Source: Actinomycetota bacterium
Lineage (GTDB): Bacteria; Actinomycetota; Acidimicrobiia; Actinomarinales; Actinomarinaceae
Direction: 5' to 3'
Assembly (NCBI GenBank): GCA_014239265.1
Contig: JAAZZH010000003.1
Span: 3,953-67,952 of the forward strand
DNA length: 64,000 nucleotides
The position numbers were made by a program, and so were the translations under genes. Under the pieces are notes generated by a model. It saw only the letters and a program-made list of their open reading frames with translations, was not told the origin of the DNA and ran no database searches. Below are positions 8,592 to 31,900 of the stretch, piece after piece; positions within the stretch are counted from its first letter, which is position 1, and each line of letters begins with the position of its first letter.

Positions 8592-9671
8592 TTATGAACC
8601 TAGCCTTTCAATGTAGCTCTTACTATAATTTTCTAATTCCCAAAAGTCATTATAGATATTACTTTTTCCCTTTTCTAATACGTCTTCTTTAAAATTACTA
8701 AAACCTTCAACTTTCAGATAATTTCCTGAAGTAATAATGTCTAAAATTGTTCTGAATGTATCTATATTTTTATCATGAGAAATTAAGAGTCTAAGGGGGT
8801 ATTCAAATCTCTCATCTTTTGAAAATTTAATTTCAGGATTTCTAGCAATACGTGCGACCTCATCCTTAATTTCAGGCAGTGCGAACCTGTCAATAATGGT
8901 ATTAGTAAATTCATCTAAGTTCTCGTTAGATTGTGACAAAAGGGAGTAGGCCACCGCCAAACTATTTACTGATGCTTTTGCAAACTCTCTTCCATCTTTA
9001 CTGGCAATAACTTCATGGATAAAAGTATGACCATTAGCTAATCCGTAATAAGCAAGTTGTAGATGTAGCCCATTTAATAGCCAAAGTTTTTTATAGAATT
9101 CATTTTCATAGTTTTTATAAGATATAATTTCTGATTTTCTTAAAGGTTGTAAGCCTGTGGAAACGTCTAATATTATTGATCCATATGTTTCTACTATTAC
9201 ATTTAAAGATGTAGGGGGCTGAGGGGGTACAATTTTATCAACAACAGCGTCAATAATTTTTAACTTTGTATTAAGAGATTTAATATTGGAACTTGCATTA
9301 CTAGATGCTTTGTACATGTTTTCAAATGCTATAAATATTTGCTCTTTCTGATTATCTAGTAACGCAATTCTTTCATAGATTCCTTGTACGAATTTAGGTC
9401 CAACAGAAGTAGTTACAATATCAGCATTGAGAAGTGTTTCATTTAAGTATTCTGAATCATCTAAATTGATAGCTTCTACATCTTGTACCACTTCTTGGGT
9501 TGCTCCTTCAATACTTAATGATGTTACAGTGTATCTTCCTTCTTCATTAATTTGTTTAACGAGATCAGTGTTTACATCCACAAAAATCACTCTGTAATCA
9601 TTAGCTTGCAAAGTAGGAGCTACGAAACCACGACCTATATTTCCTGCACCAAAGTGAACAGCTAGCTTCAT
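8592..9671 (-). CDS. mtlD: Mannitol-1-phosphate 5-dehydrogenase
   Basis: N-terminus MKLAVHFGAGNIGRGF and overall length typical of MtlD. Operon context. Confidence 0.8.
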   Translation of the reverse strand: MKLAVHFGAGNIGRGFVAPTLQANDYRVIFVDVNTDLVKQINEEGRYTVTSLSIEGATQEVVQDVEAINLDDSEYLNETLLNADIVTTSVGPKFVQGIYERIALLDNQKEQIFIAFENMYKASSNASSNIKSLNTKLKIIDAVVDKIVPPQPPTSLNVIVETYGSIILDVSTGLQPLRKSEIISYKNYENEFYKKLWLLNGLHLQLAYYGLANGHTFIHEVIASKDGREFAKASVNSLAVAYSLLSQSNENLDEFTNTIIDRFALPEIKDEVARIARNPEIKFSKDERFEYPLRLLISHDKNIDTFRTILDIITSGNYLKVEGFSNFKEDVLEKGKSNIYNDFWELENYSKSYIERLGS

Positions 9672-10111
9672 AGACTCATTGATAAAAGGTTAAAAATATT
9701 CTCTATTGAAGTCTCTTTCCAAAGTTTTTTTGCATCATCTTCTTCTTCAATAGCATCAGCTAGTGCAGACAAAACTCCCATGTGATCATTGGAATTAGCA
9801 GCGATACCCACAATAACATATGCTATTTCTTCATTCCAAAGAACTCCCTCAGGTACCTGAATAACGCTAATCCCGGTGTGGTTTACGTACTTTGACCCTT
9901 CAGCCATACCGTGAGGGATTGCAACTCCATTTCCGATGTAGGTTGCAAAGGATTGTGTTTCTAATTTCTCAAGCATGGAGTCGATGTACTCTTTTTTGAT
10001 ATAGCCATTCTCTAAAAGAATTTCACCTGCCATAATTGTGGCCTCTTCTTTAGATGAAAAAGCTTGATCTGTAAATATAGACTCTTTAATTAAAACTTCA
10101 TTTTGATTCAT
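9668..10111 (-). CDS. mtlF: PTS mannitol-specific EIIA component
   Basis: PTS_EIIA_2 fold with GVAIPHG active-site His. ATGA-type overlaps on both sides. Confidence 0.8.
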   Translation of the reverse strand: MNQNEVLIKESIFTDQAFSSKEEATIMAGEILLENGYIKKEYIDSMLEKLETQSFATYIGNGVAIPHGMAEGSKYVNHTGISVIQVPEGVLWNEEIAYVIVGIAANSNDHMGVLSALADAIEEEDDAKKLWKETSIENIFNLLSMSL

Positions 10112-10428
10112 GAAGAGAAGATTTCATTACCCTCTGATAAGTCTGAAATAAGCTTTTTTAATGATGGATCATTCATAAACATTGTAAATTGAACGATTAC
10201 AGCATTTTCAGGTGCTGCAGCTTTTGCTGCTCCAGAAAGTCCGGTGTGACAAACAACTATATCTGAGTCACTTGGGATCTGTGTTGCTGGCGCATGAACT
10301 ATTTCTACGTCTAATCCTGCTTTTTTTGCTTTTTTAATTAAACCATTTTTAACCATTAAGCTTGACCCAGCCCCTGCTTCACAGGCTAAACATATTTTTT
10401 TAACTTCTGATGCTTGTATTGAACTCAT
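10108..10428 (-). CDS. PTS mannitol-specific EIIB component
   Basis: KICLACEAGAGSSLM matches the E. coli MtlA EIIB Cys motif (VACDAGMGSS). Start moved to the ATG at 10428, which has GGAGGAG 2 nt upstream; the tracked start at 10473 lies inside a terminator hairpin. Confidence 0.7.
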   Translation of the reverse strand: MSSIQASEVKKICLACEAGAGSSLMVKNGLIKKAKKAGLDVEIVHAPATQIPSDSDIVVCHTGLSGAAKAAAPENAVIVQFTMFMNDPSLKKLISDLSEGNEIFSS

Positions 10429-10437
10429 TTCTCCTCC

Positions 10438-10478
10438 AAATAAAAAAATTGACCTGGGACTTTTACATCCCAAGTCAA
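10438..10478 (-). terminator. Intrinsic terminator-like hairpin between the EIIC and EIIB genes
   Basis: Minus strand: TTGACTTGGGA-tgtaaaag-TCCCAGGTCAA (11 bp, one G-U) followed by TTTTTTTATTT, then immediately the GGAGGAG SD of the EIIB gene. Confidence 0.55.
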
Positions 10479-10498
10479 TTATAACTTAATAGTTTAGG

Positions 10499-11560
10499 TT
10501 AGACAGTAGGTATATTGCTTTCGATAGTATCTTCTACACCTGAGTCTGTTTCTTTGATTGGACGAGCTCTTAGTAAGATAACACCAACTACAGCAGATGC
10601 TGCTGTTGCGATTGCTACTCCACCTAGAACTGCAAATGCCCCACCTTTTGGAAGCATCGCAATGTATGCGAAAATACTTCCTGGTGACGGAGGTCCTACT
10701 AGGCCTGCTCCGGTTGCTACGAACCAAAGGTCAGCTGAAATTCCACCAGCCCACATTGCGATGATCATAATTGGATGACCAAGAACATATGGGAAATAGA
10801 TTTCGTGAATTCCTCCAAAGAAATGGATAATTATTGAGCCAGGTGCGGATTCTTTCCACATTCCTGTACCAGCAAACCAGTATGCAAGAAGTAAACCAAG
10901 ACCTGGGCCTGGGTTAGTTTCTAGCAAAAAGTAAATTGATTGACCAGTTTCTGCTGACTCAGCTGCTCCAAGAGGTGTTAACACACCTTGGTTGACAGCA
11001 TTGTTTAAGAACAATACCTTTGCAACTTCAATAGGAATGTCAGCTAACGGAACTAGACCACTGTCTACTAACGCTGCTGCACCATTTCCTAATGCATTTG
11101 TAATTGCTTCAAGTATTGGACTGATAATGTTAAAAGCTAGAACAGCAAGACCCCAACCCAAAATACCAAGTGAAAAGTTATCATATAACATTTCAAAACC
11201 TTCTGGTATATTGTCTTGTAATCTACTATCTATTTGCTTAAGTATCCAAGCTGCTGCTGGACCAACGGCCATAGCACCTAAGAACTGCGGTGAAGATGTT
11301 GCAACAATAATTGCTGTTGTAACGACTGCACCAATCACACCACCTCTATGACCATGAACCATTTTTCCACCTGTGTAACCTAACAGAAGCGGAAGAAGAG
11401 TAAGTATCATAGGACCAACCATTTGGACCAAATCTTCATTTGGTAGCCAACCAGTCGGAATATAAAGTGCTGTAATCAAACCCCAAGCGATGAAAGCACC
11501 AATGTTAGGAATAACCATTCCTGACATAGCACCGCCAACGCGTTGTATGGATTCTTTCAT
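10499..11560 (-). CDS. mtlA: PTS mannitol-specific EIIC component
   Basis: Collinear with the E. coli MtlA N-terminal domain (PNIGAFIAWG..IPTGWLPNE, LFLNNA.N.G, HFFGGIHEIYFPYVL). Confidence 0.85.
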   Translation of the reverse strand: MKESIQRVGGAMSGMVIPNIGAFIAWGLITALYIPTGWLPNEDLVQMVGPMILTLLPLLLGYTGGKMVHGHRGGVIGAVVTTAIIVATSSPQFLGAMAVGPAAAWILKQIDSRLQDNIPEGFEMLYDNFSLGILGWGLAVLAFNIISPILEAITNALGNGAAALVDSGLVPLADIPIEVAKVLFLNNAVNQGVLTPLGAAESAETGQSIYFLLETNPGPGLGLLLAYWFAGTGMWKESAPGSIIIHFFGGIHEIYFPYVLGHPIMIIAMWAGGISADLWFVATGAGLVGPPSPGSIFAYIAMLPKGGAFAVLGGVAIATAASAVVGVILLRARPIKETDSGVEDTIESNIPTV

Positions 11561-11744
11561 ATTACAATCCCCCTAACGATCGTTTGTGTTGATTTTCAAC
11601 TATCCCAGTATAAAAGTTGTTTTTACTGTTTCACTTTGACTTTTGTTCATCTAAAATTATATATGTAACTAAATTTCTTATCTAAGGTCATTTTTTACAC
11701 AATTTTTAGCAAATTAATACTAAATTGTTAAAAAAGGAGTTTTT

Positions 11745-12131
11745 TTGAAGAATATCGCCATTTCATTGATTTTGTTAGCTTTTTTAGGATTATTGTCTCT
11801 TGGGGCGACAGGATCTTTGGTTACGGAAACTTCAGGCGTATTTAATAAGGTACAAGGAGAAGTTTTTCAAGAATCCTCGAGCGAAGTTATCTTAGAAGGC
11901 AATCAATTGTTCATATCTATAAATCAAAAAGATAAAGAGAATTCTGAAAAAGCTGTTATTGATTGTTTAAATTTTTATTCTGGAAAATATCCACAACTTG
12001 ATGAATATACTTGTGATTTAGTGGTTAGAACTAACATCATCATCGATAATAGTTGTAATTATCTAACTGGTGTGCTTGTTAAAAAAGATTCTGAAGAATC
12101 TATAACTTTAGATTACAACACGAACTGCTAG
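11745..12131 (+). CDS. Secreted hypothetical protein (TTG start)
   Basis: AAGGAG SD 5 nt before the TTG, an N-terminal signal peptide and 4 Cys. No family recognised. Confidence 0.45.
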   Translation: MKNIAISLILLAFLGLLSLGATGSLVTETSGVFNKVQGEVFQESSSEVILEGNQLFISINQKDKENSEKAVIDCLNFYSGKYPQLDEYTCDLVVRTNIIIDNSCNYLTGVLVKKDSEESITLDYNTNC

Positions 12132-12400
12132 TCAAATAACGAACCTAGTAGGCTATCTCCTTCAACCTCAATCTCAGCGAGAGTTTCCCCTACGTTTACC
12201 ATCGAGCCCTCGTCTACATTAAGCTTTATGATTTTTCCATCAAAGGGACTGTCTAAATCCATATCTACTTTATCTGTTGCAATTTCAGCTATGACATCGC
12301 CTTTTTTTACCTCATCTCCAACACTCACCTTCCAAGTTAAAAGTTCTGCTTCCGTCATCTGATCTGACATTGCAGGTAAAATAATGTTTTCATTACTCAT
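12128..12400 (-). CDS. Free-standing lipoyl-domain protein (no E2 catalytic domain)
   Basis: 90 aa with the lipoyl attachment motif EIATDKVDMDL and flanking beta-barrel pattern. Overlaps the E1 beta stop by 8 nt. Confidence 0.75.
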   Translation of the reverse strand: MSNENIILPAMSDQMTEAELLTWKVSVGDEVKKGDVIAEIATDKVDMDLDSPFDGKIIKLNVDEGSMVNVGETLAEIEVEGDSLLGSLFD

Positions 12401-13385
12401 TATCGATCATCTCCTTTATTTTTATCACAATATCCTCTTCTTGAGGTATTACAGTTGTTTCTAAATGTTTTGCTGAAGGCATGGGACTATGTAGTCCTGA
12501 TAAAAGTACTGGTGGTTTTTTTAAAGAAGTAAAAGCACGTGAAGAAGCAACTTCAGAGATTAATGTAGCTCCAATTGAGCTACTGCCCGGTGCTTCTTGA
12601 CAAACCAAAAGATTATGTGTTTTTTCAACTGAAGTAATAACTGTCTCTGTATCTAGGGGTGAAAGTGTTAACAAGTCAATTACTTCTATCGAGTATTTCT
12701 TTAGTGAATCATCGTTAACGGCATTCATCACCGTATTGACCATATTGGAGTATGAAGCAACAGTGATATCTGTTCCTTCTTGAACAACTTTTGATTTTCC
12801 AAGAGCAGAAGAATCTGCTGGCAAAGCTCCTAAGGTAACGTCAGATTTAAGCTTATAAATTAATTTATGCTCCATAAAAATAATAGGATTTGGGTCAACA
12901 AATGAAGCCAGTAAAAGGTCATAAGCATTTTGCGGATTTGATGGAGTCACTACTTTTAACCCAGGTACATGACAAAACCAGGATTCTAAGGATTGACTAT
13001 GTTGAGCAGCAGCTCCTGTTCCAGCTCCACTGGCACCTCTTACAATCATGGGTACGTTAACAGCTCCACCATACATAAAATGTAATTTTGCTGCTTGATT
13101 AACAATTGGATCCATTGCGTTAACAATAAAATCACTGAATTGCATTTCAACAATTGGCATTGAACCAGTAATTGCTGCGCCAACAGCTAATCCAGCTATG
13201 ACATCTTCTGAAATGGGTGTATCTTTAATTCTGCCTTCTCCGTATTTTTCTAATAAGCCATCTGTCACACCAAAAGCTCCACCATATACACCAATATCTT
13301 CTCCAGCAATAAAGGTCGTTTTATTACTATCAAGACATTGCGAAAGTGCTTCTCGTATTGCTTGACCTGTTGTCAGTTCAGGCAT
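12393..13385 (-). CDS. TPP-dependent 2-oxoacid/acetoin dehydrogenase E1 component, beta subunit
   Basis: Transketolase-like Pyr and C-terminal domains (GEDIGVYGGAFGVT, FSDFI..A.D.I.NQAAK). 8-nt overlap with the alpha subunit. Confidence 0.85.
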   Translation of the reverse strand: MPELTTGQAIREALSQCLDSNKTTFIAGEDIGVYGGAFGVTDGLLEKYGEGRIKDTPISEDVIAGLAVGAAITGSMPIVEMQFSDFIVNAMDPIVNQAAKLHFMYGGAVNVPMIVRGASGAGTGAAAQHSQSLESWFCHVPGLKVVTPSNPQNAYDLLLASFVDPNPIIFMEHKLIYKLKSDVTLGALPADSSALGKSKVVQEGTDITVASYSNMVNTVMNAVNDDSLKKYSIEVIDLLTLSPLDTETVITSVEKTHNLLVCQEAPGSSSIGATLISEVASSRAFTSLKKPPVLLSGLHSPMPSAKHLETTVIPQEEDIVIKIKEMIDNE

Positions 13386-14331
13386 ATGAATCTTCCTCCA
13401 AGTTCGTCTTAGGACTTTCAGGAGACTGGAGTGCTTTTTTAACAGAGTCTCGAATTACTTCTTTTACCTCAGCCTCGATTTCTTTTAATGTTTCCAAATC
13501 TATATTTTCTTCAGTTAACTTTCCAATAAATCGTTTTAGGGGATCTTTTTCTTCTTTCCAAAAAGCAATCTCATCTGAAGTCCTATAAAGATTACGATCA
13601 GATTTTGAGTGACCTCTGTATCTATATGTGACAGATTCAATAAACATTGGCTTTCCAGATTTTTGGATTGTATTTTTAAATTCTGATACAGTATTGTAAA
13701 CTTCCTCAACATCATTACCATCAATAGAGATACTTTCAATTCCATATGATTCTGCTCTTTGTGCTATTGATCCACCAGCAACAGCATTTTCTGAAGCCAT
13801 AGACATCCCATATTGATTATTTTCACATACAAATAAAACTGGTAAATCCCATAGCGATGCCAAATTTAATGCCTCATGAAATGATCCCTCGTTCACTGCT
13901 CCGTCACCAAAAAAACAAAGGACAATATTATCAAGTTTTTGCATTTTTAGGGATAAAGCAGCGCCAACAGATATAGTTAAACTACCGGCAACAATTCCAT
14001 TTGCTCCTAAGTTTCCATTGGATAAGTCTGCAATATGCATGGATCCGCCTCTTCCACGACAATACCCATCTTCTCTTCCCAGCAGTTCGGCAAACATTTT
14101 ATAAGGATCTGCTCCTTTTGCTAGACAATGTCCATGTCCCCTGTGGGTTGAAGTAATTAAATCTTCGCGCTTAAGAGCAAGGCAAGCCCCAGTTGCTGTA
14201 GCTTCTTGACCGATTGATAAATGCATTGTTCCATGTAACAATCCTCTGGAAAACATTTCCTCTAAAGCTTCCTCAAATAATCGTATGAGTAGCATCATTC
14301 TATAAAGTTCTAATTTATTTTCTTTGTCCAC
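13378..14331 (-). CDS. TPP-dependent 2-oxoacid/acetoin dehydrogenase E1 component, alpha subunit
   Basis: HLSIGQEA, THRGHGH, GGSMH and the TPP-binding GDGAVNEG...NN motifs. Confidence 0.85.
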   Translation of the reverse strand: MDKENKLELYRMMLLIRLFEEALEEMFSRGLLHGTMHLSIGQEATATGACLALKREDLITSTHRGHGHCLAKGADPYKMFAELLGREDGYCRGRGGSMHIADLSNGNLGANGIVAGSLTISVGAALSLKMQKLDNIVLCFFGDGAVNEGSFHEALNLASLWDLPVLFVCENNQYGMSMASENAVAGGSIAQRAESYGIESISIDGNDVEEVYNTVSEFKNTIQKSGKPMFIESVTYRYRGHSKSDRNLYRTSDEIAFWKEEKDPLKRFIGKLTEENIDLETLKEIEAEVKEVIRDSVKKALQSPESPKTNLEEDSYA

Positions 14332-14341
14332 GTAAGCCTCT

Positions 14342-15592
14342 TTAATTATTTTGTTTATTACGTAATTTATTTATTAAGTTATCTGGCAACTCTAGGGAAG
14401 CTCTAGGGATTGGTTCTCCTTGTTTTACTTCTCCAACTACCGTTGCTCCTTCAATTAAGCCAAGGGGGGCTAGCCCATCTGTTTCGGAGTAAGGATAAGC
14501 AACCCCATATGAAGAAAATCCTCCAATCCCATCAATCTGGTCTCCTGGTTTTAAATCTTTTTTGGCGTGACCTATGACTTCAGAAATCCACGTTGTTGGC
14601 TGTAGCCCGGGCTCATTATTTATTATCGCCATGCCTACACTTCTAGGGGCCTCGACAGATGCGAGATGGTACGGCCTGTAAAGAGTGTAATATGGGCCTT
14701 CTCCCATTGATAGATATGCCATTTCTTCGATAATTGTAGGATTATCTGTAGTTACAATAGAAAAGACACCTGGTGCAGGGCCAAAGGCAAAGTCAACACG
14801 TCCTGATTCTTTAAGAACCCCTCCGTCTGATTCTGGTATTAAATTCCTGTTTAGATCTGATACTTCACTGACGGGACCGTTCATCCCTACTTTATCTAAG
14901 GGCATTCCTATACCATTGGATAATGCAGTCATTTCAATCATTGTTTTACTTCCATCTACAAAGCTAGCTAACATTTTAGGATTCATATTTTTCTGCATAG
15001 CTCTATCATGTAAAGACTCAGGTGTAGCGGTTTGGTCTAGTGGATTATTCTTACCCTTTCCAATACAAACTACTTCAAAGCCGATATCAACCGAAAAATC
15101 GTAGAGTTCTTTACACGCAACAGGTTCATCTCCGTTTGCAACACTGTAAACAACCCCTTTTTCTTTAGCTTGTTGAGCTAAATAAAGTCCTATTGTTATG
15201 TCTGTTTCGACATTTAGCATCAGAATATGTTTTCCTGCGTCTATACAGTTTGAAGCAACCTCTGCACCAACCCAGGGAACTCCTGTGGCTTCAAAAACTA
15301 TATCAATAGGAAGTTCTGCGAGGTCTTTTGCATTGCTAACAATGCCTCCATGACCCTTGGAAATTGATGAGCTTGCATCTTTATTATGACCAATACTTGT
15401 AACACCAGCAAGACGGAGTGCATTTTCTGCTCTTTTTTCATCAATGTCTGCACAGGCAACTAGTTCCATTCCAGGTATGCGGCCAATTTGTGCCGCTAAA
15501 CCAGAGCCCATTTGTCCGGCACCTGCTAGTCCAACTCTAACGGGTCTGCCTAATTCTTTTTGTCTCTTGATAAGTTCTTGTGTAAAATTCAT
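14342..15592 (-). CDS. NAD(P)-dependent oxidoreductase, homoserine-dehydrogenase-like N-terminus plus C-terminal SAF-like domain (COG4091-type)
   Basis: Rossmann motif VGLAGAGQMGSG and the C-terminal GATVVGEVKQGEPIPRASLEL (SAF-like). Start abuts the srlB stop (0-nt spacer). Confidence 0.6.
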   Translation of the reverse strand: MNFTQELIKRQKELGRPVRVGLAGAGQMGSGLAAQIGRIPGMELVACADIDEKRAENALRLAGVTSIGHNKDASSSISKGHGGIVSNAKDLAELPIDIVFEATGVPWVGAEVASNCIDAGKHILMLNVETDITIGLYLAQQAKEKGVVYSVANGDEPVACKELYDFSVDIGFEVVCIGKGKNNPLDQTATPESLHDRAMQKNMNPKMLASFVDGSKTMIEMTALSNGIGMPLDKVGMNGPVSEVSDLNRNLIPESDGGVLKESGRVDFAFGPAPGVFSIVTTDNPTIIEEMAYLSMGEGPYYTLYRPYHLASVEAPRSVGMAIINNEPGLQPTTWISEVIGHAKKDLKPGDQIDGIGGFSSYGVAYPYSETDGLAPLGLIEGATVVGEVKQGEPIPRASLELPDNLINKLRNKQNN

Positions 15593-15949
15593 TTACTTAA
15601 TCTCTATTCTGTCATTTATCTTTATCTCAGGCGTGTTTGTAAAGCTACAGCTCACATCACCTGGCAGTGCTGCTTCAGTTGCTGAATCTAGCTTTAAAAC
15701 AAGATGTCCCAAATTTGTAAAATTTTCGTTAGCGACAGGTCCAACAGCGGTAACTATTAATTCTTCGTTAGATAAATTAATTTTTGTTCCAACTACGATT
15801 TCACCAACTACATCCTGAAGCTCATGTACAACGGCCACATCTTGGAGTTCTTCAGGAGCATTATCTCCAAAAAAAACTACGATTCCCTCTTCTAAAAATA
15901 AGTGGGCTTGATCTCCAATTTTTACAACTTTTGAAGAGTAGATCGACAC
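15593..15949 (-). CDS. srlB: PTS glucitol/sorbitol-family EIIA component
   Basis: Collinear with E. coli SrlB (ITAVGPVANENFTNLGHLVLKLD vs VTAVGSVAEDNLRELGHVTLRFD). Confidence 0.8.
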   Translation of the reverse strand: MSIYSSKVVKIGDQAHLFLEEGIVVFFGDNAPEELQDVAVVHELQDVVGEIVVGTKINLSNEELIVTAVGPVANENFTNLGHLVLKLDSATEAALPGDVSCSFTNTPEIKINDRIEIK

Positions 15950-16326
15950 TATATTTCAGTAATCTGATCTTCAGATACTCCTGAAACAAAATTTTCTTCT
16001 CTTATGAATTGAGCTAATGGACCAGCGGGTGAAGTATCGTGAATATCTATAGTTGGAACACCTTTCATAGGGTAGACCCCAATTCTTGCAGTTCCCCCAC
16101 AATCAATTACAGCACATGCCATGGCTTTGAAACCGCCTTCAGGAGATGATTTGAAACCATCGAAAGCTTCTGCACCTGTCATATCGGCAATTTTTTGAGC
16201 TACAGGATGAATGCCTCCACCGGTGATACAAACTACATATTTTCTTTCATCTGTAGGTTTGACCTCTAAAGGTCCTCCCCAGCCACCTTTGCCTCTTTCA
16301 ATTTTTACTTTTTTATATTCAGCCAT
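15949..16326 (-). CDS. PTS glucitol-family EIIB domain protein (equivalent to the N-terminal half of SrlE)
   Basis: IERGKGGWGGPLEVKP...VIDCGGTARIGVYP...PTIDIH...GPLAQFI matches E. coli SrlE residues 1 to about 120. Confidence 0.8.
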   Translation of the reverse strand: MAEYKKVKIERGKGGWGGPLEVKPTDERKYVVCITGGGIHPVAQKIADMTGAEAFDGFKSSPEGGFKAMACAVIDCGGTARIGVYPMKGVPTIDIHDTSPAGPLAQFIREENFVSGVSEDQITEI

Positions 16327-16345
16327 TTTTACTCCTTAAATTATC

Positions 16346-16377
16346 TGTGACGCTTTGATTTTACACAAAGCGTCACA
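16346..16377 (-). promoter_or_regulatory. Perfect 12-bp-stem hairpin in the EIIC2-EIIB intercistronic spacer
   Basis: TGTGACGCTTTG-attttaca-CAAAGCGTCACA. There is no U-run after it on the coding (minus) strand. The SD AAGGAG of the EIIB gene follows about 10 nt downstream. Confidence 0.5.
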
Positions 16378-16403
16378 AAAAATATAATTATTGTCTTATG
16401 TGT

Positions 16404-16928
16404 TTACAAGCCTAATGCAAACAAATAACCAACAACAACTGAAATCGGTCCAGTAATCATTCTACTTGTTAGAACGGCTGGTACACCAATCTCTACTGTT
16501 TCCGGTTCCGCCTCACCTAATGCGAGACCAACTGGAACGAAATCACAACCAACTTGTGGGTTGATTGCAAATAATGCCGGTAGTGCCATAGCAACATCGA
16601 TATTTCCACGTCCAATCTCAGTTCCAACTAGTACACCAACTATTTGAGCTATTACAGCTCCTGGTCCTAGTAATGGAGACAAGAAAGGAATTGAACATAC
16701 GATACAGACAAGCATCAAGCCAGTTAAGCTAGAAGCGAATCCTTTAATTCCTTGAGCTATATAATCACCAATTCCTGTTGAAAGGATTAACCCAATTACA
16801 CCGGCAACGAATGCCATGAATGGAATTATTGTTTGGATACATAACTGTACAGCATCACGACCCGCTTGAAATAATTTTCCAACTACTCCACCAACGGACC
16901 TACCTATTTTTTCGATCATACTTTGCAT
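16404..16928 (-). CDS. PTS glucitol-family EIIC2 membrane component (equivalent to the C-terminal half of SrlE)
   Basis: LFQAGRDAVQ..IIPFMAFVAGVIG...PFLSPLLGPGAVIAQIVGVLVG...LPALFAINPQVGCDFVPVGL is collinear with the E. coli SrlE C-terminal half. Confidence 0.8.
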   Translation of the reverse strand: MQSMIEKIGRSVGGVVGKLFQAGRDAVQLCIQTIIPFMAFVAGVIGLILSTGIGDYIAQGIKGFASSLTGLMLVCIVCSIPFLSPLLGPGAVIAQIVGVLVGTEIGRGNIDVAMALPALFAINPQVGCDFVPVGLALGEAEPETVEIGVPAVLTSRMITGPISVVVGYLFALGL

Positions 16929-17470
16929 TATTCAGCACCGACCTTTCTTGAAGACATAATTGAATAGATAATGTCTGTTGTGACACCTCTAATCAAAATA
17001 ACAACAAGCCCAGCGAGTAAGTATCTTACTGCTAATGGCGTTACTAATTCTGGAGCTGCGATCTCAACTCCTGCTGCAATTCCCAACCATACGAATAACT
17101 CTCCACCATTTGCATGTGGAAAGATTCCTGTAATTGGATGAACAAAACTAACAGCAGCATCGTAAAATGCTGGTTTGTTTTTTTCTGGTAAGAATGTCCC
17201 GAATGTATAGCAAACTGGGTTTGTCAGCATAAACACAGCTACAAACGGTAGCAATGTATATCGAACTGGAACGTACATCCAGCCCTCCTGAGCAGCCCAC
17301 TTGGCAAAGTTTTCAACTTTATCTTCACCAATGAATTTGACCAATGCATTTACTGCAGTCAAAAACACCACTATCAACGGGATAATACCAGTAGTCAAAC
17401 TGACAAATACATCTGCTGACGTTCTAAAAACACCAATAAATGCATCAGCCATACTAACTAACGTGTCCAT
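16928..17470 (-). CDS. srlA: PTS glucitol-family EIIC component
   Basis: About 180-aa polytopic protein of SrlA type. AAGGGGGA SD, and a 1-nt overlap with the next gene. Confidence 0.75.
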   Translation of the reverse strand: MDTLVSMADAFIGVFRTSADVFVSLTTGIIPLIVVFLTAVNALVKFIGEDKVENFAKWAAQEGWMYVPVRYTLLPFVAVFMLTNPVCYTFGTFLPEKNKPAFYDAAVSFVHPITGIFPHANGGELFVWLGIAAGVEIAAPELVTPLAVRYLLAGLVVILIRGVTTDIIYSIMSSRKVGAE

Positions 17471-17491
17471 TTTTCCCCCTTCTTTTTATTT

Positions 17492-17902
17492 CTAATTAGA
17501 AACACTTTCTGAATCTTCATTAATTTTTTTGATTAACGTGTCAGCTGCCATAGCTGCTGCATCATAAAGTGGATCTTTTCCATCAGAGTCCGTAAACTCT
17601 AACAAACTTTTATTGATTAACTCTTGTACCTGTTTTCCTTTTGCAAAGACAGTAGTTCCTTTTAAAGTGATTGCATCAACGATTATTTTTTGAGGATTTG
17701 CAGAGATAGCTAAATAAACTCTTTTACGACCCCATTTAGGTTGGTTTGTGCCAATAGCAACTGTTAAATTATCACCATGAAGTTCTTTAACTACATTCAA
17801 AAAGCTAACTGCTTGTTTTTTAGCAAGTTGCATTTGTAGAACCCACATACCAGCAAGTCCTAAAAATAATGCTCCTAATGCAATAGGTGAATCTAAAATA
17901 AT
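17492..17902 (-). CDS. gutM: Glucitol operon activator GutM-like protein (start extended to a probable ATT codon)
   Basis: The core ...GRKRVYLAISANPQKIIVDAITLKGTTVFAKGK... resembles E. coli GutM (RVVVAIALDDQQRIVDTLFMKGLTVFARPQK). The frame is open 21 codons upstream of the tracked ATG (17848); 18 of these follow the proposed ATT and encode the expected N-terminal TM helix. AAGGA lies 6 nt before ATT at 17902. Confidence 0.6.
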   Translation of the reverse strand: MILDSPIALGALFLGLAGMWVLQMQLAKKQAVSFLNVVKELHGDNLTVAIGTNQPKWGRKRVYLAISANPQKIIVDAITLKGTTVFAKGKQVQELINKSLLEFTDSDGKDPLYDAAAMAADTLIKKINEDSESVSN

Positions 17903-18020
17903 TGTTGTTCCTTACTTCCTACTTGTATTTTATATGTGAAGGGTTTTGGTTTGCAATTTTTACAAGTAAAAATTTTAATTTTACTGTAACGGGTTCAGGC
18001 TTGAATGCTATAGAAGTTTG

Positions 18021-18716
18021 CTAGTTTTCATCAGTAATTATTTTTTCAAGTTCAAAAATATCCTCGATAAAAGTTACTTTCATATTTTTTGGGTCTCCAG
18101 GAACTATTACTGCTTCTCTCCCAACATATTTAGAAACACATTCGGTCGTGTCCACAGCCTGCCAGTTGTCTATTTTTGCTAATTCGTAAGACTTCCATAA
18201 TTCATCAGCTGGAAAAACTTGAGGGGTTTGAATTTCTACAATTGTTTCCTCTTGAGAGTGATTTGTATCCGTATCACTCTTAATTGATAAATTTTTAGAA
18301 TTGAATCCTGGTGCTGATGCGCCATCTCTTTTTGCCACTTCAATAAGTTCATCTAGTAGATATAAAGGCAATAGAGGTCGTGCTCCGTCATGAATTAATA
18401 TCATGTCATCTTCGGAAACATTTCCTGAATTTTTTAGATACATAAGCCCTTCATATTCACTCTCATGTCTAGTTTTTCCACCAGTTGTTATGCCGACTAA
18501 TTTATTGGTTTCTACAAGCTCAATAACCGTATTTGTTTTTTCCCAATCCTCTTCACGTATTACAAGAAGAATTGAATCAACATATGTAGACTTTTCAAGA
18601 GTTTCTAAGGGCCAGCAGAGTGCTGGTTTTCTACCAACTGGAAAATATACTTTATTTTCCTCATCACTAAATCTATGACTAGAGCCACCAGCTAAGAGTA
18701 TTGCATGAGTCTTCAT
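18021..18716 (-). CDS. ispD: IspD-family cytidylyltransferase (MEP cytidylyltransferase or other polyol-phosphate cytidylyltransferase)
   Basis: LLAGGSSHRF, GGKTRHES, ILIHDGARPL, QTPQVF and NMKVTFIEDI motifs. ATGA overlap with the ptsI stop. Confidence 0.75.
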   Translation of the reverse strand: MKTHAILLAGGSSHRFSDEENKVYFPVGRKPALCWPLETLEKSTYVDSILLVIREEDWEKTNTVIELVETNKLVGITTGGKTRHESEYEGLMYLKNSGNVSEDDMILIHDGARPLLPLYLLDELIEVAKRDGASAPGFNSKNLSIKSDTDTNHSQEETIVEIQTPQVFPADELWKSYELAKIDNWQAVDTTECVSKYVGREAVIVPGDPKNMKVTFIEDIFELEKIITDEN

Positions 18717-20344
18717 ATCTCTAATTTGTTAATCTTATCTCTAACTTCTTGACTGTTTGTCGATTTCAGTATTTCAGATTTAAGATCTTCAGTGTTCATT
18801 GATTTTAATTTAATCAGTTTTTCAAAAACAAAAGGTGCAGCAGATGAAGACATACTAAATTTTCGGAGTCCTAATACATATAAAGCTACTGCAGAAATTG
18901 GGTCTGAAGCCATCTCTCCACACACAGAAACTTCTTTACTTTGTTCTTTGCTTACACTGAAAACATTTTCTAATACTCTTAATATTGCAGGGTGTAGAGA
19001 ATCTTGATATTCAATTAGATTAGGATTTCCTCTATCCGCAGCCATAATGTACTGTGTTAAGTCATTCGTTCCAATAGAGAAAAAATCAACATGTTGTGCA
19101 AAATCTTCTACGAGAATTGTTGAAGAGGGAGTTTCAATCATAATCCCAACTTCGGGCATTTTTTTTCCTAAGTTTTCAGCGATTTCTTCAATTATAATTT
19201 TGCTTTTTAAAAAGTCTTCTATGGTTGAAATCATTGGAAACATTATCTTTACACGATGAGCATCCCTAGATGTAAGGATTGATTCGATTTGAGATCTATA
19301 TAGTTCTTCGATTTGAAGAGATAAACGAATGCCTCTTACACCTAAAAATGGATTTTCTTCAACAGGCAAACTTAGGTAATCTACTTGTTTATCTCCACCT
19401 ATGTCTAAGGTCCTGTAGGTAATTGTTCCGCTAAATTTATCTTGTATTTTCTCTAATATATCCCTCTGTTCATCAATGGTCGGAATGGATGACCTATCTA
19501 AATAAATAAACTCGGATCGGAAAAGTCCAATGGAGTTTAAAAAAGCATGACTAAATGACTCTATCTCTTCCCCAGAGCCAACATTGATTAAAAACTCAAA
19601 ATCTTGGTTTTTGTATTCAGATAAAGTAAAACTATTTTTAACTTCCTCTTCTCGTTTTTTTGTCTCATTCAAACTCTCTATTACATCTTTATCTGGATTA
19701 ATATTTAACTTTCCAGTAGCCCCATTAAGTGCAATTAAGTCATCATTCTTTATCTCTTCTATGCTTTCTCCAACACCAATAACACATGGGATGCCCAAGT
19801 TTTTTGCAACAATAACTGCATGAGAAGTTGGGCCACCATCTCTAAGGATAATGCCAGTAACGTTTGCCATATTCATTGAGGATGTATCCGCAGGTGTTAA
19901 GTCATCTGCGACTAAAACAGAGTTTTCTTTTAGTTCAACTTTTATCTCTTTCTCCTGCATTGTATTTATTAAATGTTTACCAACTGAAATTATGTCTTCC
20001 GCTCTTTGTTTGAAATACTCATCTTCCATGCTTGCTAATATATTTGAACTAGAGTCGAAGATATTATAAATTTCTTTTACTGATGATTGATTTTCAGCTG
20101 TAATTTGTCCTGTGATTTCTGGGTCTTTAAGAATTAAAATATAGGCATCTAATACTTCGGCTTCTTCATTTCTGTTATTATTTTTAAAATCTTCAATCTG
20201 TGACTGAAATTTTGAAGTAAGTTTTTTAACTGCCTCATTAAATGCAATTTTACTCTCTGCGTTAAGGTCAATCTTATTTTGATAAACGAAGGCATTTCCA
20301 ATACAACTTCCTATAGATACACCATTTCCGTTAACACTTTTCAT
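18713..20344 (-). CDS. ptsI: Phosphoenolpyruvate-protein phosphotransferase (PTS Enzyme I)
   Basis: GGPTSHAVIVAKNLGIPCV (phospho-His region), FFSIGTNDLTQY, CGEMA. Confidence 0.9.
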   Translation of the reverse strand: MKSVNGNGVSIGSCIGNAFVYQNKIDLNAESKIAFNEAVKKLTSKFQSQIEDFKNNNRNEEAEVLDAYILILKDPEITGQITAENQSSVKEIYNIFDSSSNILASMEDEYFKQRAEDIISVGKHLINTMQEKEIKVELKENSVLVADDLTPADTSSMNMANVTGIILRDGGPTSHAVIVAKNLGIPCVIGVGESIEEIKNDDLIALNGATGKLNINPDKDVIESLNETKKREEEVKNSFTLSEYKNQDFEFLINVGSGEEIESFSHAFLNSIGLFRSEFIYLDRSSIPTIDEQRDILEKIQDKFSGTITYRTLDIGGDKQVDYLSLPVEENPFLGVRGIRLSLQIEELYRSQIESILTSRDAHRVKIMFPMISTIEDFLKSKIIIEEIAENLGKKMPEVGIMIETPSSTILVEDFAQHVDFFSIGTNDLTQYIMAADRGNPNLIEYQDSLHPAILRVLENVFSVSKEQSKEVSVCGEMASDPISAVALYVLGLRKFSMSSSAAPFVFEKLIKLKSMNTEDLKSEILKSTNSQEVRDKINKLEI

Positions 20345-20418
20345 TATTTCATCAAGTTACACGGAAAAAAAGGTTTTTGCAATGTTGGATTACTTCAAAA
20401 TCACATTATTTTTAATAT

Positions 20419-20883
20419 ATGAAATATTTACTTCTAAATTTCAAAGAGATGCCAACATATGGTTGGATTGAATACTCTGAAGAAAAAGGGCTCGTTCTAT
20501 CTGAGCAAGAGATGTTCGGTAGTTTTCTAGACATAAAAGATTTGGTCAACAACAATACTTGTATCGTTGTTGATACACTCGCAACCGATGAACCTACTCT
20601 TTCCATCTCACTGGAGAATATACTAAAGTCAAATTACTCTATTACAACACAAAAGGTAACCAACGCTTTAAAAAAGATTGACTCTACAGGTAAAGTGGTC
20701 AGTCATCTCAATAGGGAAAACTATCAGAGACTTTCAACTCCGATTAAGGCAAGTGGCCGTTCAATCATTGAATACTTTGATGATTACTCTTCATGGGATT
20801 TTGAAAAATACTTAAAGTTAAACAACCACTCCTATAAAGATTATCAAACTTTTGAGGCTGAATTAATCCTGAAGTCAAAGTAG
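20419..20883 (+). CDS. Hypothetical protein with weak resemblance to the C-terminal half of IspD-family enzymes
   Basis: The only sizeable ORF covering this 0.5-kb stretch. The segment VTNALKKIDSTGKVVSHLNRENYQRLSTP loosely parallels IspD V.DT.K......I..TVDR..LW..QTP. No nucleotide-binding N-terminus. Confidence 0.35.
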   Translation: MKYLLLNFKEMPTYGWIEYSEEKGLVLSEQEMFGSFLDIKDLVNNNTCIVVDTLATDEPTLSISLENILKSNYSITTQKVTNALKKIDSTGKVVSHLNRENYQRLSTPIKASGRSIIEYFDDYSSWDFEKYLKLNNHSYKDYQTFEAELILKSK

Positions 20884-21695
20884 ATTTGACCAATACCTAC
20901 TAATAAAACTAAAATAAAGCCTACTAACTGTTTAGAGGATAAGTTCTCATTAAGTAAAAAAGCTCCCAAGATAACCCCCGTAACTGGTTCTAAATAAGAA
21001 ATTGTGCTGACAGCTATAGGTTTAATTACTTTTACAACGTACCAATAGGTTGTAAGGCCTACACCTGTCAAAAAGAATCCAAGAAAAATACTGACTGCAA
21101 AATTTTCAATCAACCACTCTCTTGATTCATAAGTAAACTTAATAAGAATAATAGAAGCAACTAACAGCTGAGAAAAAGCCACTTTTAGTCCTCCTAGTTG
21201 TGAACTAAATTTTTCCCCAATAATTATTATCAAAGACAAACTAATAGCACTTATTAGTCCATAAAAAATTCCCTCCAGCGAAATAATATTTGAAATATCT
21301 AAAAGAAAATACAGACCAATAAAGCCGATAGAAATTAGAAAAACTTGATAACTTTTTGGTTTATTCCCACGTAAGAATTCAAATAGTAAAACAAAAAGAG
21401 GGTACGAAAAAACTAATCCTATGCCGACTGCAATAGAGTTTAATTCAATTGACTCAAACATTGTCACCCAATGAATCGCAAGAAGTGGTCCTAAGATTAA
21501 TCCTGGTTTAATGAGCTCTTTTATATTGAGATTTTTTCTTAACAATAAAGTAGCGAGGAAAAATGTTCCTAGAAATGTTCGTATTCCGACAAGAGATATA
21601 GAGGTAATATCAGATGTCCGTATTATTAATGGAATTGTTCCCCAAGAAATAGCTAATAAAATTATTCCCGAATAGGCTTTTGTTGTCGGTTTCAT
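20844..21695 (-). CDS. EamA/DMT-family transporter
   Basis: 10-TM protein with two EamA-like halves. Confidence 0.75.
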   Translation of the reverse strand: MKPTTKAYSGIILLAISWGTIPLIIRTSDITSISLVGIRTFLGTFFLATLLLRKNLNIKELIKPGLILGPLLAIHWVTMFESIELNSIAVGIGLVFSYPLFVLLFEFLRGNKPKSYQVFLISIGFIGLYFLLDISNIISLEGIFYGLISAISLSLIIIIGEKFSSQLGGLKVAFSQLLVASIILIKFTYESREWLIENFAVSIFLGFFLTGVGLTTYWYVVKVIKPIAVSTISYLEPVTGVILGAFLLNENLSSKQLVGFILVLLVGIGQIYFDFRINSASKV

Positions 21696-25605: not shown

Positions 25606-26244
25606 ATGAAGTTTTTAAAATTCGCACTCTTATTAATATTGATATCATGCACAGCAACATTAGAAACTGCTGAGAAAGAGATAATTATGACAACTGAAAA
25701 TGAAAAATCAACTGATACTGGAAATCAAAAAGCATATTTTGCCGGTGGATGTTTTTGGTGCATGGAGCCACCTTTCGAAGCATTAGACGGAGTTCTCGGT
25801 GCAACTTCTGGATATATGGGTGGCACAACGGAAAATCCTACCTACGAAGATGTCGTAACTGGAGAAACTGGGCATGCAGAAGTTGTGGAAATATTATATG
25901 ATCCAAATGTCGTCACTTACGAAGAGCTTCTTGAGGTGTTTTGGAGAAATATTGATCCAACTGCTCTGAATTATCAGTTTGCAGATGTTGGCTCACAATA
26001 TAGAACTGAAATTTTTACTGTAGGAGAAGATCAAATGCAGGCTGCTGAAACCTCTAAAAAAGAACTTGGTGATTCAGGAAAATTTGATAAACCTATAGTG
26101 ACTGCAATCTCTGCTGCACCTAAATTTTATATTGCTGAGGAATATCATCAGGATTTCTATAAAAAACAAGCCATGCGATATGAAATGTACGCAAAGGCTA
26201 GCGGACGAAAAGGATATATTGAAGATACCTGGGGTGACGACTAA
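25606..26244 (+). CDS. msrA: Peptide-methionine (S)-S-oxide reductase, lipoprotein-type signal
   Basis: AYFAGGCFWCMEPPF active site, GHAEVV and YHQ.F. The N-terminal LILISC is a lipobox-like signal. Confidence 0.88.
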   Translation: MKFLKFALLLILISCTATLETAEKEIIMTTENEKSTDTGNQKAYFAGGCFWCMEPPFEALDGVLGATSGYMGGTTENPTYEDVVTGETGHAEVVEILYDPNVVTYEELLEVFWRNIDPTALNYQFADVGSQYRTEIFTVGEDQMQAAETSKKELGDSGKFDKPIVTAISAAPKFYIAEEYHQDFYKKQAMRYEMYAKASGRKGYIEDTWGDD

Positions 26245-27206
26245 TCACGAATAGTTTTATATAGTGTTTCTTTCCACTCGTCACTATCAATTTCCCAAAT
26301 AACGTTAATATTTCTTTCCGTGTAGCTCCAATGCTCATCTATATGAGGCTCACTTTCGCCAACATGTAGTTGATCAACAATAGTCATTCCTCTAGCGGGT
26401 CCATCTATCACAACTTGAACGTTGTGTCTTGAGACTTTTGTTGTCACAGCTGGATTTAATGCTACTGCCATCGCTACAGGATCGGGTAGTCCAAGACCTG
26501 GATCTCCCAACCAATTTTGGCTTGAATCAAGAGCATGTTTATTACAATCTATTGTGAAATCTGCTTTTTCAGTCTTAAAGCTATATGCAAGCTCCATTTC
26601 CTCTTCAGTTAGATTTGCTTCGCCTCTACATAATTCCCAGCCCACCATGGCAATATCATGATGCTTCGATTTAAAAACTATATCTGCGGCTTCAGGGTCA
26701 CACCATATGTTGTATTCAGCTGCCGGAGTTACATTTCCAACTGTATTTGAAGCCCCACCCATGATTACGATATTTTTCAGTTTTAAAAAAGAATCAGGAT
26801 ATTTTTTTATGAAATTAGCCACATTTGTTAATGGACCTAGGGTAACTAAAGTTATTTCGTCGGGATGTTGATTAATGTGATTATTTAGAACCTCAATAAA
26901 ATCTTCATTAGTTTCTTGAAGTTTTGGTGCAGGGTAGTTCATGTTGCCCATTCCATCGGGTCCATGAAACCAATCCGCATGTTCTCTTTTTTTTACAAGG
27001 GGCGCATCTGCACCAACATAAACTGGAACATCTTTCTTACAAAGCTCAACGGTATACCTAGCGTTTATACTTCCCTGTTCAACAGACATGTTTCCCGAAA
27101 CAACGCTGATTCCTAAAACTTCAACATCCTCCCACTCGAGGGCCATTAATAATGCGACAGCATCATCAGATGCAGTATCTGTATCTATAAAGTATTTATT
27201 TTTCAT
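26241..27206 (-). CDS. Inosine/uridine-preferring nucleoside hydrolase family protein
   Basis: N-terminal DTDTASDDAVAL (DxDxxxDD) plus NIWCDPEAA. Confidence 0.85.
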   Translation of the reverse strand: MKNKYFIDTDTASDDAVALLMALEWEDVEVLGISVVSGNMSVEQGSINARYTVELCKKDVPVYVGADAPLVKKREHADWFHGPDGMGNMNYPAPKLQETNEDFIEVLNNHINQHPDEITLVTLGPLTNVANFIKKYPDSFLKLKNIVIMGGASNTVGNVTPAAEYNIWCDPEAADIVFKSKHHDIAMVGWELCRGEANLTEEEMELAYSFKTEKADFTIDCNKHALDSSQNWLGDPGLGLPDPVAMAVALNPAVTTKVSRHNVQVVIDGPARGMTIVDQLHVGESEPHIDEHWSYTERNINVIWEIDSDEWKETLYKTIRD

Positions 27207-28133: not shown

Positions 28134-28136
28134 AAC

Positions 28137-31893: not shown

Positions 31894-31900
31894 AGTTCAA

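Follow-up and report, generated by a model that had tools for sequence, protein, structure and literature searches.

A gut-type PTS operon of the Actinomarinaceae that joins a DXR-II-family oxidoreductase to an acetoin dehydrogenase-like E1, a candidate route for 2-C-methyl-D-erythritol utilisation

The window operon and its closest described relatives

The gut/srl operon of E. coli and Salmonella (srlAEBD-gutM-srlR-gutQ), the DXR-II enzyme DRL of Brucella and the acetoin dehydrogenase complex are the described systems closest to an operon that we analysed in a stretch of 64,000 nucleotides, hereafter the window, from a bacterium of the Actinomarinaceae (Actinomycetota; assembly GCA_014239265.1, contig JAAZZH010000003.1, positions 3,953 to 67,952 of the forward strand). 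This operon joins a gut-type phosphotransferase system (PTS) to an oxidoreductase, to the two subunits of an E1 that depends on thiamine pyrophosphate (TPP) and to a lipoyl protein. Its transporter belongs to the same SrlA, SrlE and SrlB family as that of the gut/srl operon and is likewise accompanied by GutM; however, the window lacks SrlD, SrlR and GutQ, its srlE is split and permuted, the DRL and the E1 and lipoyl genes lie downstream, and its relatives are regulated by SorC-type proteins.

The Brucella DRL (Sangari et al. 2010; PMC3847144) shares its fold family with the window oxidoreductase, and the residues that anchor fosmidomycin or the substrate, as well as those of the dimer, are largely conserved between the two, with H250 of the Brucella enzyme replaced by N in the window. 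Known DXR-II enzymes have been described as biosynthetic only, converting DXP (1-deoxy-D-xylulose 5-phosphate) to MEP (2-C-methyl-D-erythritol 4-phosphate), whereas the window DRL is embedded in an operon for a transporter and a cleavage complex, which implies a catabolic direction. Acetoin dehydrogenase (AcoA/AcoB/AcoC/AcoL) likewise combines a heterotetramer-type TPP E1 with a lipoyl acceptor, and the chemistry that it performs, the conversion of a methyl alpha-hydroxyketone to an acetyl unit and an aldehyde, is the chemistry proposed here. In contrast to that complex, the window E1 belongs to a distinct clade linked to a PTS and a DRL, the E2 is cut down to a lipoyl protein of 90 aa and E3 is missing; the acetoin systems have AcoR/sigma-54 or LuxR-type regulators, whereas the DRL-linked clusters have SorC-type ones. 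A more distant likeness is to DXS, also a TPP enzyme, which handles the same pair of hydroxyethyl-TPP and glyceraldehyde 3-phosphate (GAP) and whose carboligation half-reaction the proposed E1 step would formally reverse. DXS differs in that it is transketolase-like, consists of one chain, begins by decarboxylating pyruvate and makes no use of lipoyl; since the C2 unit would be oxidised onto lipoyl in the window system, the proposed cleavage would be irreversible.

The kinds of parts are known, and what is new is their combination in one operon, of which we found no earlier description in the literature. Weighing the comparisons below, we lean modestly towards an operon for the utilisation of 2-C-methyl-D-erythritol (ME), or a very close analogue, by way of MEP and DXP.

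Nine open reading frames (ORFs), all on the minus strand, make up the operon, and their coordinates and junctions were reproduced from the ORF table of the window; Pfam and NCBIfam agreed on the family of every gene. The gutM-like gene (17492-17902; PF06923, 1.5e-13) is followed by an srlA-type EIIC of 180 aa (16928-17470; PF03608, 9e-66; NF049923, 205 bits against a cut-off of 150), by EIIC2, the C-terminal membrane half of srlE, with 174 aa (16404-16928; PF07663, 2e-45; positions 157-329 of model NF049924), by EIIB, the N-terminal half of srlE, with 125 aa (15949-16326; PF03612 over positions 1-116, 2e-52; positions 1-118 of NF049924), and by an srlB-type EIIA of 118 aa (15593-15949; PF03829, 2.7e-31). 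All the domains of a Gut-family PTS (TC 4.A.4), namely EII-GUT, EIIBC-GUT_N, EIIBC-GUT_C and PTSIIA_gutA, are present. The two halves of srlE are separate genes in swapped order, membrane half first and EIIB half second, with a gap of 77 nt between them (15949-16928); this split and permuted form is common to many DRL-linked loci, whereas Streptomyces and others retain a fused EIIB-EIIC. After a 0-nt spacer, srlB gives way to the DRL/DXR-II-family NAD(P) oxidoreductase of 416 aa (14342-15592; PF21135 DRL_cat, 3e-60, 203 bits), and a 10-nt gap separates this from E1 alpha, the TPP-binding subunit of 317 aa (13378-14331; PF00676 E1_dh, 8.6e-80; TIGR03182, 356 bits against a cut-off of 394). E1 beta, of 330 aa (12393-13385; Transket_pyr and Transketolase_C), overlaps E1 alpha by 8 nt, as does the gene for the free-standing lipoyl carrier of 90 aa (12128-12400; PF00364, 2.4e-20) with E1 beta. 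The lipoyl-lysine, K44, is legible in the translation within an ATDKV motif, and so is the GDG...NN TPP motif of E1 alpha. Upstream, on the same strand, lie a gene for an ispD-like cytidylyltransferase of 231 aa (18021-18716; PF01128 IspD, 6.9e-33) and, overlapping it by 4 nt, ptsI for PTS enzyme I of 543 aa (18713-20344), whose syntenic orthologues carry PEP-utilisers_N, PEP-utilizers and PEP-utilizers_C; ptsI is the first gene of the island.

A first-pass annotation, made from the letters and translations of the window, had given the nine genes with coordinates and spacings that match the ORF table to the base, and its family calls were borne out by the profiles. It had left out the upstream ispD-like and ptsI genes, and its description of the DRL as a Rossmann/SAF, COG4091-type oxidoreductase was right as to the oxidoreductase, whereas the generic SAF/COG4091 label gives way to the profile assignment as DRL (PF21135, Brucella DRL). 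Its outer boundary at 17902 falls on an ATT codon that is probably the true start of gutM. No ATG, GTG or TTG separates the stop upstream of gutM from the conserved hydrophobic N-terminus; the ATG at 17848 would give 118 aa, and the in-frame ATT at 17902 would give 137 aa and restores the N-terminal hydrophobic helix common to all GutM homologues. We favour the ATT because the helix is restored and because the equivalent start codon is GTG in the related marine locus L001; the close relative L085 is arranged as the window.

The genes that the first-pass annotation had reported as absent from the window (SrlD, the E2 catalytic domain, E3 and GutR/SrlR) were not detected by our tblastn probes or NCBIfam scans either. 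Probes from related loci for the E2 core, E3 and a SorC regulator matched only the lipoyl domain in the window; NCBIfam scans of 29 further large ORFs of the window, with ORFs below about 250 aa mostly unscanned, returned no SrlD, E2, E3, dxs, dxr or ispE-H; and neither an SrlR/GutR repressor nor a GutQ isomerase was found in the window by the probes and the scans. A single short-chain dehydrogenase/reductase (SDR) was found in the window; it is generic and lies at 41296-42132, 25 kb from the operon.

Recurrence of the cluster and the families of its enzymes

We scanned one genome per species with the DRL alignment and obtained 80 loci whose DRL is 41-52% identical to that of the window; neighbours within flanks of about 10 kb were read by tblastn with the window proteins and by clustering of all the ORFs of the loci. 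A gut-type PTS was present in 56 loci, E1 alpha/beta in 51, both in 47 and an IspD-like gene in 31; when the survey is restricted to the 45 loci flanked on each side by 8 kb or more, the corresponding counts are 34, 36, 33 and 23. Other recurring members are a SorC-type sugar-binding regulator (52 loci), GutM (50 loci), HPr and PtsI, and the PTS, DRL and E1 genes are often contiguous. The loci come from Actinomycetota (Streptomyces, Nocardia, Mycolicibacterium, Amycolatopsis, Kocuria, Cryobacterium, Nocardioides, Klenkia and Rubrobacter), Chloroflexota (Ktedonobacterales, Chloroflexus and Anaerolineae), Spirochaetes, Bacillota (Tepidanaerobacteraceae and Salinicoccus) and Alphaproteobacteria (Chelatococcus), and this recurrence across phyla places the arrangement far beyond chance. 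Near-identical synteny, with 75-92% protein identity and WhiB nearby, was also found on TARA and other marine metagenome contigs, and single-cell genomes of Ca. Actinomarina share the flanks of the island (dnaB-eamA-...-ptsI-ispD-...-mannitol PTS-mtlD-HPr).

In other versions of the cluster the transporter is exchanged. On the Sinorhizobium meliloti plasmid pRm41A, an ABC sugar transporter and a sugar kinase diverge from SorC-DRL-E1a-E1b-E2-LpdA-LipA, and a Priestia plasmid carries E1a-E1b-E2-Lpd-SorC-MFS-SorC-DRL-FGGY kinase. The swappable transporter, the constant DRL and E1/E2(/E3), the accessory replicons and the sugar-type regulators, which are SorC-type sugar-binding proteins and not AcoR, together point to a catabolic pathway through a phosphorylated intermediate. 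The labels that PGAP gives to such reduced and swapped clusters are generic. In Clostridioides difficile (L092:9004-14924), a SorC-regulated E1a-E1b-E2-Lpd cluster has no DRL nearby, and its E1 alpha is 51% identical to that of the window. We also noted that a megaplasmid of Ligilactobacillus salivarius (L090:9001-16572) carries DRL, SrlB, SrlA, SrlE, GutM and SorC followed by fsa and tkt in place of the E1; FSA could in principle cleave DXP to hydroxyacetone and glycolaldehyde phosphate, but fsa-tkt of L. salivarius is known to complete the pentose-phosphate pathway of the species, and we do not rely on it as a DXP-cleaving module.

The 416-aa oxidoreductase is a member of the DXR-II/DRL family by sequence, since it aligns over residues 11-411 with the Brucella abortus DRL (PDB 3UPL/3UPY) at 40% identity (E=2.9e-94). 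Among the residues that anchor fosmidomycin or substrate, bear on dimerisation or are diagnostic of DXR-II (Carretero-Paulet et al. 2013, PMC3847144), Brucella G121, E174, F178, K191, K193, T229, R320 and Y322 are kept in the window DRL, and H250 and V351 are changed to N and I. Cluster-linked proteins are scattered over the whole DRL tree, and the Brucella DRL is sister to E1-linked Ensifer proteins, nested among cluster-linked homologues. In the Brucella/Ochrobactrum group, the DRL occurs as two paralogues. One, which is 96% identical and orthologous to the crystallised Brucella enzyme, adjoins pntAB in a housekeeping context (L099:9001-10317); the other, the 76%-identical protein of B. intermedia, is encoded in a cluster made up of a Gat-type PTS, DRL-E1a-E1b-AcoC-type E2, SorC and HPr-PtsI-SrlB-SrlE-SrlA (L101:6365-19320). 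Both DXR-II paralogues of O. anthropi are reported to be functional in complementation (PMC3847144), and, judging across species, the cluster-linked paralogue is probably among these two. The DXR-II of C. aurantiacus is also active, yet this organism lacks the MEP pathway and has the mevalonate pathway only (PMC3847144); a metagenome-assembled genome of Chloroflexus (L078) carries the full PTS-DRL-E1-E2 cluster.

The ispD-like gene of the window scores 114.7 bits with PF01128 and 138 bits with TIGR00453, under the cut-off of 181, against 85 bits with the model for ribitol-5-phosphate cytidylyltransferase, and its product is predicted to convert MEP to CDP-methylerythritol. In the 31 survey loci that have one, an IspD-like gene lies within 10 kb of the DRL, and its position varies: it follows PtsI in the window and Nocardia, the DRL in the Nocardioides group and E2 in Kocuria and Pseudonocardiaceae, it heads the E1 operon of L039, and in Chloroflexota the PTS-DRL operon opens with IspD and a small Zn-ribbon protein. 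Such recurrent and variously arranged linkage argues for functional coupling to MEP. As an observation of its own, the cluster-linked IspD of Actinomycetota and Chloroflexota is nearly always followed by a small Zn-ribbon-like protein (c16), which has about 100 aa and two CxxC pairs and matched no family in Pfam (L027:6640-6960, L037:6566-6880, L008:13304-13615, L059:8760-9056 and about 24 more); it does not occur in the window.

To place the E1, outgroups were taken from plasmid records with annotated context and included the Aco enzymes of Klebsiella (acoABCD, LuxR-type regulator), E. faecalis (sigma-54 activator), S. epidermidis and Thermus (acoA). The DRL-linked E1 alphas are 48-61% identical to that of the window, true Aco E1 alphas 41-44%, and those of the PdhA type about 40% or less. 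In a neighbour-joining tree, all the DRL-linked E1 alphas and the SorC-linked one of C. difficile form a single clade that is sister to Aco. The acetoin-like logic that the first-pass annotation had proposed for the E1 is backed by this tree, with the clade standing beside the genuine acetoin E1s and not inside them. Equivalents of human alpha-H63, alpha-H263, beta-E59 and beta-H128 are conserved in the window E1. A PDB search gave human pyruvate dehydrogenase (PDH) E1 as the best match and did not separate Aco from PDH identity; we know of no Aco E1 structure.

Several residues are invariant in the DRL-linked clade and never shared with the outgroups: in E1 alpha, H33 (R59 in human PDH; P in Aco), T35 (F61; F or L), S177 (G201; variable in Aco, with A, Y, G or T), K243 (M265; E or V), S244 (S266; G) and T251 (human equivalent not mapped; A, S or N in Aco), and in E1 beta, T123 (A122 in human PDH; A, V, L, R, K or F in all outgroups). 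The B. intermedia locus L101, which was independent and not used in deriving this signature, carries it in full. With the unmapped T251 set aside, we take these residues to flank the human E1p active-site positions alpha-F61, H63, M200, H263 and beta-H128, and to lie near the two phosphorylation loops that line the substrate channel in the literature on PDB 1NI4 and 3EXE. The replacement of hydrophobic or acidic residues by polar or basic ones is in better agreement with a larger, polar and anionic substrate than with acetoin or pyruvate, but the signature does not identify the substrate itself.

The best NCBIfam match of the 90-aa lipoyl protein is the lipoyl domain of AcoC, and it shares 36-49% identity with the lipoyl domains at the N-termini of the full E2s in related clusters. 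The first-pass annotation had described a free-standing lipoyl protein, and this is indeed what the window encodes, with no E2 core, peripheral-subunit-binding domain or Lpd beside it, but it is not a trait of the system: the 90-aa form is confined to the window and its marine relatives L001-L004, L085 and L086, which come from independent samples, whereas elsewhere E1 beta is followed by a full E2, with the 2-oxoacid_dh core in 35 of 40 relatives and the E3-binding and lipoyl domains in 38 of 40. One relative (L101) has an AcoC-type E2 with lipoyl, E3-binding and alpha/beta-hydrolase domains, and E3 (Lpd) lies within the cluster in several relatives. By these comparisons, the free-standing protein is an E2 remnant, the product of a lineage-specific reduction. 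All the operon genes are under purifying selection (dN/dS 0.01-0.12), and the strong constraint on the lipoyl gene in particular (0.018 against L085) argues for a working carrier and not debris. A similar E2-less layout of E1 and carrier occurs on the Thermus thermophilus plasmid pTF25b (L094:4998-7188), where an ORF of 82 aa, annotated as hypothetical, comes after acoA and E1 beta and encodes a lipoyl domain alone, with a VESDKA motif; that E1, in contrast, belongs to the Aco clade and lies beside a TRAP transporter without DRL or PTS. In the comparison of the window with L085 (a 92% relative; L085:8124-9190), srlA and EIIC2 also showed dS of 0.25-0.33 against 1.2-2.4 in neighbouring genes, which suggests that the genes of the membrane subunits either recombined recently or are under an exceptionally strong constraint on codons.

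A candidate route from methylerythritol to acetyl-CoA

The first-pass annotation had proposed that a polyol phosphate delivered by the PTS is oxidised and then cleaved by the TPP enzyme, with the C2 unit taken up by the lipoyl group, and the comparative evidence supports a route of this kind. The identity of the oxidoreductase as DXR-II/DRL and the linked ispD put ME, MEP and DXP forward as candidates in place of an anonymous polyol phosphate. ME is a sugar alcohol of plants and algae, DXR-II interconverts DXP and MEP, and IspD uses MEP. In the first step, the Gut-family PTS would import ME and deliver MEP; the title of Testa et al. 2004, as cited in PMC3994034, reports transport of ME by the sorbitol PTS of Salmonella, and a passage of PMC3994034 describes a dxr mutant that lives on supplied ME. 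In the second step, the DRL would oxidise and isomerise MEP to DXP. The E1 with its TPP would then attack C2 of DXP, which is a methyl alpha-hydroxyketone and in effect a phosphorylated analogue of acetoin; C3-C5 would be freed as GAP, and the C2 unit would be transferred oxidatively to lipoyl-K44 as acetyl-dihydrolipoyl. E2 would make acetyl-CoA and E3 would reoxidise the lipoyl group, E2 being encoded within the cluster in most taxa and E3 in several; in the window lineage, a housekeeping E2 core and Lpd from elsewhere would need to work in trans, and Corynebacteriales already share lipoyl domains between complexes in this way. IspD could divert part of the MEP into isoprenoid synthesis as a salvage branch. 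The net conversion would be ME + phosphoenolpyruvate (PEP) to pyruvate + GAP + acetyl-CoA + two reducing equivalents.

Several points weigh against this model. The DXR reaction is reversible with an equilibrium that favours MEP, and flux in reverse would need the pull of the irreversible oxidative cleavage. The window DRL has N at the position of Brucella H250, which is His in nearly all DXR-II, so that its specificity could differ, and other PTS-linked DRLs vary at positions 121, 174, 229 and 250. DRL homologues with identical key residues also occur, without E1 or IspD, in a second sugar cluster (L067, L074, L077 and L079, also L042 and L053; for example L079:7321-17453), and the key residues do not fix the substrate because these proteins share them. 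For the E1, specificity is not readable from sequence; no phosphate-binding arginine pair like that of DXS or transketolase is evident in E1 beta, where T123 is the only clade-specific residue. With neither an E2 core nor E3, the window does not encode a complete complex and does not account for the fate of the acetyl-lipoyl group. Listeria has SorC, DRL, GutM and SrlAEB without an adjacent E1. Finally, in other Ca. Actinomarina genomes this site is occupied by ptsI-ispD-DRL (L043:1153-3614, L045:9281-11742 and L058:4263-6721, all from single cells and with H250 kept in the DRL) without the gut PTS, E1 and lipoyl genes; the DRL of this lineage may thus also be a housekeeping DXR, and the PTS/E1 cassette has been gained or lost within the order.

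Two of these contexts have features of their own. The second DRL cluster consists of SorC, a SIS-domain isomerase, a Zn-dependent alcohol dehydrogenase (Zn-ADH), DRL, an L-fucose-isomerase-like (FucI-like) protein, an FGGY kinase and a ribose-type ABC transporter, and has the look of a further sugar pathway, likewise undescribed, with an enzyme similar to DXR-II. In the Ca. Actinomarina single-cell genomes, the DRL is followed by a protein of 174 aa that resembles YjbQ/UPF0047 by eye.

The architecture and logic of the ME route could also serve another polyol or deoxy-ketose, such as 1-deoxy-D-xylulose, 2-methylthreitol, a tetritol or a pentitol, with acetyl or glycolyl arriving on the lipoyl group; the DRL would then be a polyol-phosphate dehydrogenase or reductoisomerase, and the E1 would cleave the resulting ketose phosphate. 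A conserved module of phosphorylating uptake, DRL and E1/E2/E3 names no substrate in itself, the DRLs with the same key residues serve in a different sugar cluster, and positions 250, 229 and 121 vary among the PTS-linked DRLs; with 1-deoxy-D-xylulose as the imported compound, salvage would run linearly through PTS, DRL and IspD, and the E1 would be a catabolic branch. We nevertheless consider a different substrate unlikely. Ordinary pentitol and hexitol phosphates are oxidised to pentose-phosphate or glycolytic intermediates, for which a dedicated C-C cleaving complex is unneeded; the linkage to IspD and the membership in DXR-II point to MEP and DXP; and the DRL would be superfluous in the catabolic plasmid islands if DXP came straight from imported deoxyxylulose.

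If instead the locus were a biosynthetic MEP cluster, the DRL would be a housekeeping DXR-II beside ispD, the E1 a DXS-like carboligase or an ordinary PDH, and the PTS an unrelated sorbitol transporter. This is compatible with the ispD-DRL pair that the other Ca. Actinomarina genomes keep at the same site, with the lack of any dxr-I or dxs seen in the window and with faint DXP_synthase_N and transketolase matches on E1 alpha, and a passage of PMC3424233 states that aceE mutations of E. coli can rescue dxs mutants. A carboligase needs no lipoyl carrier, however, and yet the lipoyl gene is kept under the strong constraint given above, while relatives have a full E2 and several of them also Lpd and LipA. 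The cluster has been placed on accessory plasmids, where sugar transporters, kinases and SorC regulators accompany it, it is present in the Chloroflexus metagenome-assembled genome although Chloroflexus strains are reported without the MEP pathway, and the DRL is set between srlB and E1 alpha with next to no spacing (0 and 10 nt). Taken together, a biosynthetic role for the whole locus is improbable.

An ordinary sorbitol operon, as a KEGG-style annotation would have it, is more improbable still. The DRL would have replaced SrlD non-orthologously, and the E1 and lipoyl genes would be the remnant of an unlinked acetoin or pyruvate dehydrogenase. The NCBIfam names of the PTS subunits are glucitol/sorbitol, with SrlA above its equivalog cut-off, and the Actinomarinales genome paper gives sorbitol uptake for this transporter (PMC7771536). 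The joint presence of PTS, DRL and E1 in 47 of the 80 loci across phyla and an E1 clade that is specific to these clusters argue otherwise, and the formation of fructose-6-phosphate from sorbitol-6-phosphate needs no cleavage complex. SrlD-like SDRs are also essentially absent from the clusters: tblastn with the window SDR, a probe of limited sensitivity, matched 4 of 84 related loci, none of them adjoining PTS genes. The first-pass view that the substrate is probably not sorbitol is supported by the comparative evidence. A chance juxtaposition of the PTS and E1 genes, for which the association would have to be unique to this genome, has a negligible probability given their co-occurrence in several phyla.

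Surroundings of the operon and implications for DXR-II

Directly downstream of the operon, a complete mannitol PTS (EIIC, EIIB and EIIA) and mannitol-1-phosphate dehydrogenase occupy window positions 8592-11560, followed by HPr in the syntenic relatives L001 and L085; with ptsI upstream, the region forms a compact PTS island. A convergent ORF of 128 aa (11745-12131) with a hydrophobic, signal-peptide-like N-terminus lies between the gut-type and mannitol operons. Elsewhere in the window, which has a GC content of about 35%, we found selA and selB of the selenocysteine machinery (1007-3969), a nucleoside-catabolism cluster with two nucleoside hydrolases, a ribokinase and a uridine phosphorylase (26241-33596), two cytochrome P450s (33687-34886 and 55908-57185) and two adjacent large ORFs of 529 and 806 aa without an NCBIfam match (51680-55747). 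Promoter-like matches in 11500-20900 were no commoner than in shuffled sequences, and the terminator-like matches in the same region (10 against 5.1 +/- 2.4 in shuffles) were uninformative. A promoter-like site in the ispD-gutM gap (17956-17927) is kept in L085 and does not settle the transcription units, and Rfam returned no riboswitch or leader anywhere in the window.

Carretero-Paulet et al. 2013 (PMC3847144) asked why there should be a second, non-homologous DXR, why its distribution is patchy, why it often duplicates DXR-I and why it occurs even where the MEP pathway is missing; according to a review of 2026, the distribution of DXR-II is still without an explanation. A model of ME catabolism provides a testable answer to this redundancy, patchiness and occurrence without the MEP pathway, and may explain the scatter of the family. 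Both the catabolic route and one reaction that the model predicts would be new, the reaction being the oxidative, lipoyl-dependent cleavage of DXP by an acetoin dehydrogenase-like complex; our literature search found no description of ME catabolism, of a DXP-cleaving dehydrogenase complex, of methyltetrol degradation or of the genomic context of DXR-II, and work on the Listeria genes lmo0543-0546 yielded none either. In its broadest form, which we put forward tentatively and rate at slightly less than an even chance, DXR-II would be primarily, and perhaps ancestrally, a catabolic MEP dehydrogenase in a widespread and hitherto unrecognised pathway for growth on ME, possibly including isoprene-derived 2-methyltetrols; the second step would be a new lipoyl-dependent DXP dehydrogenase, by which a sugar phosphate is cleaved to acetyl-CoA and GAP, the biosynthetic DXR-II of Brucella and Bartonella would be a secondary recruitment, and the marine lineage would make do with a free lipoyl carrier and borrowed E2 and E3.

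The physiological direction and context of DXR-II also matter because the enzyme has been discussed as a drug target in Brucella and Listeria. The lipoyl-only E2 remnant would be a natural minimal system of E1 plus carrier. For the Ca. Actinomarinales, the model would re-annotate the "sorbitol PTS", one of only two PTS transporters found in the island. If it is true, carriers of the pathway would range from soil actinomycetes and rhizobial plasmids to the streamlined Actinomarinales of the surface ocean, and methylerythritol-type compounds from phytoplankton, plants and isoprene oxidation would be a relevant source of carbon in the surface ocean and in soil.

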